A model generated the notes under the pieces. The model was not told the DNA's origin, did not search any database, and saw nothing but the letters and a program-made list of their open reading frames with translations. Below are positions 21,383 through 60,743 of a stretch of 64,000 nucleotides of DNA, piece by piece. The DNA comes from an uncultured Porphyromonadaceae bacterium. GTDB lineage: Bacteria > Bacteroidota > Bacteroidia > Bacteroidales > Barnesiellaceae_A. Made by a program: the position numbers and the translations under genes. Each line of letters opens with the position of its first letter. The stretch's first letter is position 1. The stretch is taken from positions 26,429 to 90,428 of the forward strand of contig CALATP010000026.1 of NCBI GenBank assembly GCA_937891845.1. Reading direction: 5' to 3'.

Positions 21383-22576
21383 TTAGAACGCTTCCGACAT
21401 CCCAAACACAATACCGCTCGTGCCTTTACCAAATCCGTAGTCTACCCGCACATTTACATTGTGTTTGAACTCAAATCGCAAACCTATACCATAGTTGATG
21501 AGTAAGTCATCTCCTTTCAGTTCCTTGAACGACGGGAATACAGTGCCACAGCCCACCCAAGCCACAGCTCCCAAGCGTTTATATACTCTTTGGCGCAATT
21601 CTATCTGACCACTCATTATGTTATTGTCTATATAACGGCCGGCGTAGTAGCCTCGCATTCGCGCGCCTCCCGCTCCCAGCTCGGCTCGCAACGGCCACGG
21701 CACATCTGTACCGTTATACTGCCCATACAGGTCTAGTGCCATTACCGAGCCTTTCCACAAGCGTTGGTAATAATTGGCTGTCAGGGTAGTAGAGAATATA
21801 TTCTGTCCGCTTGTTCCCAATGGACGTGGATAATAAACCTCTTTCAGCATTATATAAAATCCTCGTTGCGGATTGGGTATAAAATCGCGTGTATCATACA
21901 CTATAGATGCACCTATTCCGGTAAAGAAATACGACGTCTCTTGTCCTTGCAGGTACGATAAGTTGTCTATTTTCGATAAGAATGTGTACCGTAAATTTAG
22001 GGCGGCTCCTATATGAAAGTGTGGCGTTATCTTATATACATAGTCACTCTCTAGTTTCAGGTGACGGCGTGTATATTTGCTCTTTTCGTTTATGGCGCAA
22101 GCATCATACGAGATACCCCAAAAGTCCAATGGCTTGTTTTGGAAGGCAAGGTCATAAGTCAGTCGCGCCCGGTCGCGCTTGAAAAGGTGATTTCCCTTGA
22201 AGATAAAACTATATTGTCCTGTCAGAGATATGTTGGCAAATATCTGTGCATCGGATGGCGACATCAACGAATCGGTGCGATCCGTTCTATACAATCCTGT
22301 CACCATTCCTCCTATTCCGAAACTCGCCTCTCGTGAATATGAGGGAAGGATGGCAAAACTTATATCCAGCGGTTTTTCAAACGTTTTATCCTTATGACCG
22401 CCTATCAACTGCTTGATAAACTTTTGGAAGATGTTATCTTTCTTTACCGTGATACTGTCTGTGACTATACTGTCGCTCAAAGCCGAGGTCGGCTCTGTGA
22501 TAACCATACCGTAGCCGGGGCAGTATGCAATTACAGTCAATATAAGAAATATTATTATAAGTAGTTGTCGCTTCAT
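21383..22576 (-). CDS. Omp85/BamA-TamA-family outer-membrane beta-barrel protein
   Basis: Signal peptide, alternating beta-strand pattern, and a C-terminal aromatic end (GIVFGMSEAF). Confidence 0.65.
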   Translation of the reverse strand: MKRQLLIIIFLILTVIAYCPGYGMVITEPTSALSDSIVTDSITVKKDNIFQKFIKQLIGGHKDKTFEKPLDISFAILPSYSREASFGIGGMVTGLYRTDRTDSLMSPSDAQIFANISLTGQYSFIFKGNHLFKRDRARLTYDLAFQNKPLDFWGISYDACAINEKSKYTRRHLKLESDYVYKITPHFHIGAALNLRYTFLSKIDNLSYLQGQETSYFFTGIGASIVYDTRDFIPNPQRGFYIMLKEVYYPRPLGTSGQNIFSTTLTANYYQRLWKGSVMALDLYGQYNGTDVPWPLRAELGAGGARMRGYYAGRYIDNNIMSGQIELRQRVYKRLGAVAWVGCGTVFPSFKELKGDDLLINYGIGLRFEFKHNVNVRVDYGFGKGTSGIVFGMSEAF

Positions 22577-22828
22577 TCCACGTTCCTATTATCCTATTGA
22601 GATTTTACAATCTGTTATAAAACGTCATTTCTATTATTATATTGTGTTGCCGGACTATTTTGATTACCCGTTTTGCAACTTTTGTGTGATTTTTAAACAT
22701 ATTTTATAGTATTAATTCTATTCCCTATGCACCTTTGCTATATTACTTTACAGCTATTATCATATCATTAATACCCGCTTGAGATGATTGCGACTCATTC
22801 ATAAGTTGTAAATCCCAATTATTTTCTT

Positions 22829-22836
22829 TATATTTG
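22829..22836 (+). promoter_or_regulatory. Bacteroidota -7 promoter box (TATATTTG)
   Basis: Exact match to the TAnnTTTG consensus, 238 nt upstream of the portal-like ATG. No plus-strand gene lies upstream. Confidence 0.45.
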
Positions 22837-22923
22837 CACAATAAAATTTGATGTTATGTAAGGGAACATTGTTCCCGCAAAGATATTCCCCTCCCTAATT
22901 TATGGGAACACTCTCAATGAGTG

Positions 22924-22968
22924 GACAGTGCCGATCCTCTGTGAAGACCGTCGGCATTGTTTTTTTTA
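22924..22968 (+). terminator. intrinsic terminator inside the portal-gene leader
   Basis: gacagtgccgat / gtcggcattgtt stem (12 bp including 2 G-U) with a 14-nt loop, running into T7-8 (tttttttt). Plus-strand orientation only. Confidence 0.6.
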
Positions 22969-23073
22969 TATGACTGTTGATACATACGTTTGCCGCTTCT
23001 CGTTTCTCTCTATCGCACAATTGTGTTATATATCGATGTTTATTTTGCAGCGGTAAACCATTAAAATTCTATT

Positions 23074-24993
23074 ATGAAATCCAATGACTTTATGAAGCCT
23101 CACTATCAAGCCTTGCTGCAGTCCGACCGTAGCAATGCCGATGTGGCGGGCACCTTTATGCAACAAGATAATGAATTGCTCAACAAGGCACACGATGCGT
23201 GGAATGCTATGGCAACTTATAGGCAATGTCGCACACGCAATCGCAATTATACCTACGGAAAACAGTGGGTCGATCCCATCTCACTTGCCGATGGTCGCGT
23301 GCTTTCGGAGGAACAATATCTTCGCGAACAAGGCAAAGTGCCGCTCAAAAACAACCTCATCCGGCAGCTTGTCAAGAGTGTAATAGGACAGTTTAGAAGT
23401 GCCCAGACCGAGCCGGTGTGTATCTCTCGCGAACGCAAAGAACAATCATTGGGCGAAATTATGAGTGTCGTTATGCAATATGCCTATCAGCACAATCGGC
23501 TCTATGAACTCGACAGCCGCTCGCTCGAAGAGTTTCTCATTTCTGGTTCTTGTTTCCATAAGATTGGCTACGGAAATCGTCGCGGAAAAACCGATGTGTG
23601 GATAGATGCCGTACAACCTTCTCGTATCTTCTTCAACACGATGGAAGATTGTCGCCTGTGGGATTGCAATCTCATTGGCGAGTTGCACGATATGACTCTC
23701 AATGACGTTATAGCACGTTTTGCCGGTGGTAGCCCGCAGAAGGCTCGACACCTCCGACAAATATTTGGAGATGCAACCGATGTCAGTCATTACAACTCTA
23801 TCGACACTGCTTCGGCTCAACGTTTTGATTCAATTAACTTTTTTGTACCCGACAATTCTCACCATTGTCGCGTTATTGAGCTATGGACACTCGATAGTCG
23901 TGAGATGTTGCGTTGTCACGATACTATGTCGGGACAATTCTACAAAGTTGATGTTGCACTCGCACACGACGTAGAAAAAGAAAACCAACGTCGTAGGGAT
24001 GAAGCTGCATCGCGAGGTATCGAGGCCGCTCAAGTGCCCATTATCGAGACCGAATGGTTTCTGGAGAACTATTGGTACTACCGTTTCTTCTCTCCATTGG
24101 GACATATTCTTGATGAAGGCGAGTCGCCCTATTGGCACGGTGAACATCCTTATTCGTTGCGCCTTTACCCTATGATCGATAGTGAAATTCACTCCTTTGT
24201 CGAAGATGTCATTGACCAACAACGATATGTCAATCGACTCATTACTATGATCGACTTCATTATGGGTAGCAGTGCCAAGGGTGTACTATTATTCCCCGAA
24301 GACCAAATACCCGATGGAATGTCTCTCGATGATATCGCTACGGAGTGGACTCGTTGCAATGGTGTGATTCTCTTCCGGCCCAAGCCCGGTTGTGCTATGC
24401 CTCAGCAGATTGCTGTAAATGCAACTAATGTAGGTGCTTACGAACTATTATCCTTGCAGATGCGACTGCTCGAAGATATTTCGGGGGTACACAGTGCCAT
24501 ACAAGGCAAGGCTGTACCTTCGGGAACGGCATCTTCCCTATATGCTCAGCAAGTGCAATATTCGGCTGTCAATTTGCTCGACCTTTTTGAGTCCTTCAAG
24601 GCTTTTCGTGAGGAACGTGACACAAAGTTGATGAAAACTATTCAGCAATTCTACGACGAGAACCGTTACAAACTTATTGCCGGTGATGATAACTTCGATA
24701 CCGATAGTATCACACCCGAGAGAGTACGAAATGCCGAGTTCGATATTGTTATTGCCGAGTCGGCGTCTGCCCCTGCTTTCCGTCAGATGTCTAATGATTT
24801 TCTTTTGGAACTTTTCCGTTCTGGCCACATTTCGTTGCAAGCGCTACTCGAAACAGGCACTTTCCCTTTTGCCGACAAACTTTTACAATATGTCAACTCC
24901 GAGCAACAGCAACAAATGCAAATGATGGCTGCTCTCTCGCAGCAACAAGCTCCCGGTTCTTCATCACCGACAGCTCAACCTGCACAACTTTAA
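23074..24993 (+). CDS. phage portal (head-tail connector)-like protein
   Basis: 639 aa. N-terminal RNRNYTYGKQW-type motif, then a long alpha/beta core and a Gln-rich C-terminal tail (SEQQQQMQMMAALSQQQ). Overall resemblance to podovirus-type portals, judged by eye only. Confidence 0.6.
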   Translation: MKSNDFMKPHYQALLQSDRSNADVAGTFMQQDNELLNKAHDAWNAMATYRQCRTRNRNYTYGKQWVDPISLADGRVLSEEQYLREQGKVPLKNNLIRQLVKSVIGQFRSAQTEPVCISRERKEQSLGEIMSVVMQYAYQHNRLYELDSRSLEEFLISGSCFHKIGYGNRRGKTDVWIDAVQPSRIFFNTMEDCRLWDCNLIGELHDMTLNDVIARFAGGSPQKARHLRQIFGDATDVSHYNSIDTASAQRFDSINFFVPDNSHHCRVIELWTLDSREMLRCHDTMSGQFYKVDVALAHDVEKENQRRRDEAASRGIEAAQVPIIETEWFLENYWYYRFFSPLGHILDEGESPYWHGEHPYSLRLYPMIDSEIHSFVEDVIDQQRYVNRLITMIDFIMGSSAKGVLLFPEDQIPDGMSLDDIATEWTRCNGVILFRPKPGCAMPQQIAVNATNVGAYELLSLQMRLLEDISGVHSAIQGKAVPSGTASSLYAQQVQYSAVNLLDLFESFKAFREERDTKLMKTIQQFYDENRYKLIAGDDNFDTDSITPERVRNAEFDIVIAESASAPAFRQMSNDFLLELFRSGHISLQALLETGTFPFADKLLQYVNSEQQQQMQMMAALSQQQAPGSSSPTAQPAQL

Positions 24994-60687: not shown

Positions 60688-60743
60688 AAATATTAAAAAT
60701 TTAAAGTGTTGAAATGTGCGATACCTTTTATCGCATCGAGATG

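Follow-up and report, generated by a model that had tools for sequence, protein, structure and literature searches.

What is the role of a promoter-like sequence, a run of hairpins and an intrinsic terminator in front of an isolated phage portal gene in a gut Bacteroidales genome? The original prediction for this locus set two readings side by side, a free small RNA (sRNA) of ~125 nt and a conditional attenuator of the portal gene, and its title and argument leaned towards the latter. The window, that is, the whole stretch of DNA analysed, is 64,000 nt long (contig C26 of genome G000, positions 26429-90428) and comes from a Bacteroidales MAG of 2.39 Mb that is 94.6% complete; the RNA locus lies within its 497-nt spacer 22577-23073. 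Comparison with relatives and modelling of the fold indicate that the spacer very probably holds a stand-alone gene for a non-coding RNA of ~125 bases, with its own promoter and terminator. The fuller reading, in which ~22841-22967 of the plus strand is a self-contained gene for a trans-acting, non-coding sRNA of ~125 nt and the portal gene is a separate unit, is the one we regard as likely.

Anatomy of the spacer

The features of the locus, in window coordinates, are as follows:

21383-22576, minus strand: gene of the Omp85 family, on the 5' side of the spacer
22805-22808, plus strand: GTTG, a -33-like element exactly 20 nt upstream of the -7 box
22829-22836, plus strand: -7 box TATATTTG, which fits the Bacteroidota primary-sigma consensus TAnnTTTG
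22841-22967, plus strand: predicted sRNA transcript of ~122-127 nt, its 5' end placed from the -7 box and its 3' end from the T-tract
22862-22876, plus strand: hairpin 1 (GGGAAC-AUU-GUUCCC), which differs in sequence between lineages and keeps its position
22881-22907, plus strand: invariant core AGAUAUUCCCCUCCCUAAUUUAUGGGA, in which the five homologues differ only by a UU/AA switch and in U-run length
22888-22891, plus strand: unpaired run CCCC, with an unpaired probability above 0.9 in all five homologues
22892-22895 with 22904-22907, plus strand: small hairpin UCCC/GGGA inside the conserved core, with an A/U-rich loop
22909-22923, plus strand: hairpin 2 (CACUC-UCAAU-GAGUG), with 100% of cells paired
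22924-22967, plus strand: intrinsic terminator, made of an outer stem, an apical stem and T8
23010-23047, plus strand: portal promoter-like block CTATCGCA-N22-TTATTTTG, outside the sRNA and ending 26 nt before the ATG at 23074
23074-24993, plus strand: P22-type portal protein gene (Pfam P22_portal 2e-38; PHROG 156 4e-74)

Transcription of the RNA would start from a primary-sigma promoter of its own, GTTG-N20-TATATTTG. The pattern (T/C/G)TTG-N20-TAnnTTTG, with the spacing fixed at N20, is found in all five homologues, where the equivalents of the -7 box are TAAATTTG in G006, TAGCTTTG in G010 and G012, and TAACTTTG in G011; the published consensus for sigma-ABfr is TTTG / TAnnTTTG (PMC7366714). 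The working definition of a canonical intergenic Bacteroides sRNA asks for a transcription start together with an intrinsic terminator (PMC7366714). The present RNA has an own promoter in silico, with a predicted start, and a Rho-independent terminator at its 3' end, the stem of which covaries.

Bases 22840-22975 fold at -48.7 kcal/mol, compared with -26.0 +/- 3.4 kcal/mol for shuffled sequences (z -6.7, with 0 of 200 shuffles as good), and the predicted transcript alone folds at z -5.4. Separate folds of the five homologues give the same four-hairpin architecture each time (z -4.0 to -6.0). The elements that had been read from the letters beforehand, namely the -7 box, the gggaac-att-gttccc and cactc-tcaat-gagtg hairpins, and a stem running into a T-tract, are all present, and the gene upstream does lie on the minus strand, as had been stated; the fourth hairpin, UCCC/GGGA, was absent from that earlier list.

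The terminator hairpin (22924-22961) has an outer stem of 10-12 bp (22926-22935 with 22950-22959), followed by an internal loop and then a 3-bp apical stem (3-4 bp across the homologues) under a GUGA tetraloop at 22941-22944. The T8 tract (22960-22967) ends 106 nt before the portal ATG. By itself this hairpin folds at -19.9 kcal/mol, and those of all five homologues fall between -17.5 and -20.5 kcal/mol and are followed by U7-U8 (UUCUUUUU in G006), so strong a structure that it would be expected to end the transcript efficiently. Mean pair probability in the terminator is 0.98 in G000 and 0.94-0.98 in G000, G006 and G011 taken as a group; it is lower in G010 (0.69) and G012 (0.72) because extra A-U pairs between the 5' A-run and the U-tract are counted there. 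(A simple consensus terminator scan of the window gave no match at 22924-22967, because the loop limit of that scan is 8 nt.)

Conservation and distribution among relatives

Homologues of the RNA are present only in four other species of the same genus (G006, G010, G011 and G012), which is the one genus, with 14 species, of its GTDB family. When the spacer was compared by BLAST with 40 related genomes, only 22881-22968 aligned, and to G006 alone (82% identity); the copies in G010, G011 and G012 were found by inspecting portal-upstream regions across the genus. When 185,579 species genomes were scanned for exact matches to the invariant core, the four known relatives and one chance match inside an fmt gene were all that came up; in JGI metagenomes the single true copy had the same sequence as that of G011, beside unrelated marine repeats. 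With covariance models searched against the 14 genus genomes (the whole GTDB family) and 150 genomes of the order, the five members score 93-139 bits and everything else at most 31 bits, these weak matches sharing only a terminator-like hairpin with the sRNA. A model search run with filters off found no remnant of the RNA in the portal-upstream spacers of non-carriers (at most 15 bits). A search for further copies of the leader had been proposed with the original prediction; the RNA is single-copy, and its relatives are the four in the genus.

Among known sequences, a comparison with 50,697 phage records gave no DNA match. An Infernal search against Rfam 15, a check proposed with the original prediction, gave no match at gathering thresholds in the whole window, and a search of the spacer at E up to 10 gave nothing relevant, GibS and FopS included. 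The best sub-threshold match is to fstAT, on the minus strand (21.7 bits, E 0.35; gathering score 72 bits).

The carriers are deposited as 'Bacteroidaceae bacterium RGIG6483' (sheep rectum), 'Candidatus Barnesiella excrementipullorum', 'uncultured Barnesiella sp.' and 'uncultured Porphyromonadaceae bacterium UMGS48'; the source lineage belongs to the uncultured gut flora, with MAGs from sheep, chicken and human samples. The backbone of the portal tree is not resolved, and a single origin of the RNA followed by losses and several gains both fit it.

Two look-alikes came up in these scans. Terminator hairpins with a UCYGUGARGA cap, in which a short C/U-G/A stem carries a GUGA tetraloop, occur behind unrelated genes in several Bacteroidales genomes, and such terminators, at L035 (G003:C47:68674-68762) and L057-L061, are the source of the weak covariance-model matches; among the terminators of G000 the motif is not enriched. 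In addition, the 19-20-nt core pattern matches the repeat CCCCCTCCCTAATTTTATGGGGG on several contigs of Ga0114995, Ga0115001 and Ga0115007 (L043-L054); the likeness of this metagenome repeat to the sRNA is limited to the pattern, and the two are unrelated.

The segment that is invariant in all five homologues reads AGAUAWWCCCCUCCCUAAUU(U1-3)AUGGGA. Among G010-G012, identity is 85-91% over the RNA and 79-84% over the promoter, compared with 52-62% over the flanks (100 nt on each side). The flank value is background, and the RNA unit is an island of conservation with sharp bounds; between G000 and G006, BLAST aligns nothing beyond the RNA.

The stems themselves are kept by compensatory change. 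Hairpin 1 is represented elsewhere by CUGC/GCAG, CUUG/CAAG and UCUUAU/AUAAGA, five of its six pairs being changed on both sides, and the basal pairs of hairpin 2 are C-G/A-U in G000 and G006 versus A-U/G-C in G010-G012. Within the terminator, 94% of cells are paired, with four compensatory pairs in the structural alignment (A7), and the apical UCYGUGARGA is shared by all five, in contrast to the variable outer stem. Over the whole of A7, standard pairs fill 94% of the pair cells, and compensatory changes on both sides are seen in 11 of 25 pairs; controls with slid partners gave 29-43% paired and 2-3 compensatory pairs. None of 500 shuffles of A7 reached the observed value on four of five measures, and on the remaining one, further standard pair types, 3 of 500 did so. 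In effect the five sequences sample only three lineages, and A7 had been fitted to the modelled structure, so that these covariation statistics are tilted in favour of that structure. (A7 was obtained via a single-sequence model, R2, since the MAFFT alignments A1, A2 and A5 misplace hairpin 2.) G-U pairs fit on the plus strand only, and the structure is therefore one of plus-strand RNA. A promoter, hairpins and terminator that are conserved and covary in five species, within sharp bounds, uphold the first of the two original readings, that of a free sRNA of ~125 nt.

Candidate modes of action and known RNAs

The predicted RNA is laid out as a variable 5' hairpin, an invariant segment of 27 nt, a second hairpin and a terminator hairpin with a GUGA tetraloop; in all five homologues the unpaired part that precedes the small UCCC/GGGA hairpin ends in CCCC. 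Most likely it is a trans-acting regulator that would contact other RNAs, or possibly a protein, through its invariant exposed segment. By analogy with Bacteroides sRNAs, which pair with translation-initiation regions through exposed conserved segments (PMC7366714, PMC11697453), it presumably acts by base-pairing through the exposed C-rich core.

The closest points of comparison are two RNAs of the Bacteroidales. Like GibS (BTnc035) of B. thetaiotaomicron (Ryan et al. 2020, PMC7366714), the present RNA stands alone, with a TAnnTTTG promoter and a Rho-independent terminator, and it has an exposed conserved segment of the kind that GibS pairs with translation-initiation regions; like the high-confidence sRNAs of that species, it is ~100-150 nt long and non-coding. 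It resembles GibS neither in sequence nor by covariance model (Rfam 15), and it is set apart by its four hairpins, by a conserved segment that is internal rather than 5'-terminal, and by a core that is C-rich (CCCCUCCC) rather than A/U-rich. It also differs from the B. thetaiotaomicron sRNAs in being confined to one uncultured genus and known from sequence alone. With FopS (Ruttiger et al. 2025, PMC11697453) it shares a sigma-ABfr promoter, an origin in the Bacteroidales and an invariant seed-like segment with a terminator hairpin behind it. However, FopS RNAs are ~65-70 nt long, consist only of a single-stranded 5' seed and a terminator, are multicopy (14 per genome) and are bound by the RRM protein RbpB (PMC11697453), whereas the present RNA is single-copy and ~125 nt long with four hairpins, gives no match to the Rfam FopS model, and comes from a genome in which no RRM_1 protein was found.

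The RNA is thus a new and narrow sRNA family of an ordinary intergenic kind that is already known. It adds a well-delimited family backed by covariation to the very few regulatory RNAs catalogued outside Bacteroides sensu stricto, and its exposed C-rich core, unusual next to the A/U-rich sRNAs of Bacteroides, may point to a different class of target. The result is modest and descriptive. It establishes the anatomy, conservation and covariation of the unit and its independence from neighbouring genes; transcription, the ends of the transcript and its mode of action and targets are what we infer.

The target scans were crude, covering one genome (G000) and working without proper gene calls. Within that scope, exact complements of the core in G000 fell on the antisense strand of genes or ahead of promoters, and so did the 13 GGGAGGGG sites that lie beyond the sRNA. 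A seeded RNAduplex scan of the whole G000 genome placed its best sites in antisense to long ORFs or ahead of promoter boxes. A perfect 14-nt match at C1:18251 is antisense to an ORF of 252 aa, and pairing of the RNA with the start regions of the Omp85 and portal genes was no better than with shuffled sequences.

The lack of a credible complementary target in these scans would suit an alternative in which the free RNA binds or sequesters a protein, or has a structural or scaffolding role, instead of pairing with other RNAs. A protein would then recognise the invariant C-rich segment and the GUGA-capped hairpin; at 27 nt the segment far exceeds the usual length of a seed, and part of it is structured, and the terminator apex UCYGUGARGA is kept in all five homologues despite the variable outer stem. 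Against this, a failed target search in one genome with a crude scan is weak evidence, and no candidate protein partner has been identified: a search of the 94.6%-complete G000 genome for an RRM_1 protein of the RbpB type found none, and the only known partner protein of Bacteroides sRNAs seems to be absent there. On balance such a mode of action is unlikely, yet protein binding stays a live rival to base-pairing.

Relation to the portal gene

The portal gene of G000 is an orphan, surrounded by genes for a RecD/Dda-like helicase, a DUF3822 protein, an AmiA-like amidase, an aldehyde dehydrogenase, UvrD and Omp85. Intact copies, free of internal stops and 62-72% identical, occur in each of the 13 remaining genomes of the genus as well as in one genome of another family; some genomes have a second copy that is 46-51% identical. 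The protein is 41-47% identical to the portals of the temperate Bacteroides phages BKO1-TP3, BS-TP4 and BF1-TP2, and the gene looks like a domesticated phage gene.

A strong terminator close behind a promoter is the classic layout of antitermination switches. The RNA has this layout, and it is co-oriented with the portal gene and directly upstream of it in G000, G010, G011 and G012. It might accordingly be read as a conditional leader or attenuator of the portal gene, in which the stop at 22967 is overridden by a processive antiterminator (Q/N-like, or of the UpxY/LoaP type) or by a ligand. The resemblance to the tR' sites of lambda and P22 (acted on by Q), to HK022 put and to UpxY/LoaP leaders extends to a promoter and a strong terminator within ~130 nt, upstream of a phage-type structural gene in four of the five genomes.

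Gene order speaks against this reading. The order is Omp85 (minus strand), RNA, portal in G000 and NAD-dependent epimerase (minus strand), RNA, portal in G010-G012; in G006, however, it is helicase, Omp85 (minus strand), RNA, DUF3822, rsmD, and the portal gene is on another contig with a different neighbour. Because synteny breaks on both of its sides, the RNA travels as its own unit. In the portal-upstream regions of carriers, moreover, the portal promoter-like block lies downstream of the RNA terminator, and the block is kept throughout the genus, in G000 and its 13 fellow genomes, whether or not the sRNA is there (eight of the 13 have the block without the RNA). Its pattern is TATCGCA (TATTGCA or TATTACA in G010-G012), N22-27, TT(A/C)(C/T)TTTG, then 26-34 nt and the ATG. 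The portal-like gene would accordingly form a separate transcription unit with its own promoter. The stretch between the terminator and the portal promoter is not conserved in sequence and varies in length from ~40 to ~290 nt, and the distance from terminator to ATG varies from ~106 to ~310 nt.

The fold gives no sign of a switch either. In transcripts cut before the 3' arm of the terminator, a search for an antiterminator fold found the 5' arm pairing with nothing conserved upstream, and alternative antiterminator pairing is absent from the fold ensemble. The marks of an attenuator (no intervening promoter, linkage to the same gene and mutually exclusive folds) were looked for in the RNA and were not found. 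As to antitermination of the phage late-gene or UpxY type, which had been suggested for this spacer, the orphan portal sits among housekeeping genes, with no phage operon, late or otherwise, and no antiterminator gene at or next to the locus; this sets it apart from tR', put and the UpxY/LoaP leaders, as do the portal's own promoter-like block after the terminator, the position of the G006 RNA away from the portal and the eight portal-bearing genomes without the RNA. Related Bacteroides phages also have neither this RNA nor a comparable spacer; the gap before the portal gene of BS-TP4 is merely 65 nt. Conditional attenuation of the portal gene, the second of the original readings, finds no support in these results and now appears quite improbable, though there may be some read-through from the RNA promoter into the portal gene in four of the five genomes. 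For the annotation of the orphan portal gene, this replaces a switchable leader of 240 nt with a short promoter-proximal 5' region of its own.

With the RNA taken as an independent gene, a more specific role can be considered. The invariant CCCCUCCC run contains CCUCC, the anti-Shine-Dalgarno core, and the RNA might be a decoy or mask of Shine-Dalgarno-like sites; or else it might be a dedicated regulator of the orphan portal and TerL-like packaging genes, which would explain why it stays beside the portal gene in two deep lineages. Bacteroidota hardly use Shine-Dalgarno sites, and G-rich sites of this kind are rare; the list of such sites in G000 is too noisy to use, and a contig end truncates the stretch ahead of rpsU. 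Either role is very doubtful.

One element of the portal promoter block recurs elsewhere. Throughout the genus (G000 and the 13 others) the heptamer TATCGCA stands at a fixed distance before the -7-like box of the portal gene. It occurs again at 60717-60735 of the window, ~35 kb from the portal block, as a perfect palindrome (TGCGATA-N5-TATCGCA) directly after a TAACTTTG box and upstream of an operon of small ORFs and a TerL-like gene, and the portal promoter of G006 has GCGATAG-N11-CTATCGC. This element may be an operator common to the two orphan phage-packaging genes, portal and TerL-like.

Coding readings of the spacer fare worst. A 23-codon ORF does exist in G000 (22902-22973), as had been pointed out, and there is the weak fstAT match on the minus strand; however, the frame from the 22902 ATG collapses to 2 codons in G010-G012 (ATG GGA TAA) and 7 in G006, an upstream 15-codon frame is broken by TAA in G010-G012, the fstAT score is far under its gathering score, and the G-U pairs are consistent with plus-strand RNA only, so that a small-protein gene or a type I toxin-antitoxin element built on this or another short ORF is effectively refuted. 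A search for a conserved open reading frame across the five homologues found none, the other frames being interrupted as well. The translation-coupled control that had been suggested along with the 23-codon ORF is rejected because that ORF is not conserved.

Elsewhere in the same genome, a small membrane-protein gene follows an ECF sigma gene; its last ~30 nt, together with the ~70-nt 3' UTR and terminator (G000:C23:35851-35951), share 97% identity with their counterpart in G002, whereas identity over the preceding 300 nt of coding sequence is only 67%. G001 and G005 have the element too. Its terminator (TGCCGACGATTGTGAAACCGTCGGCATT) is similar to that of the sRNA from the portal spacer, and it is a candidate for an sRNA derived from a 3' UTR.
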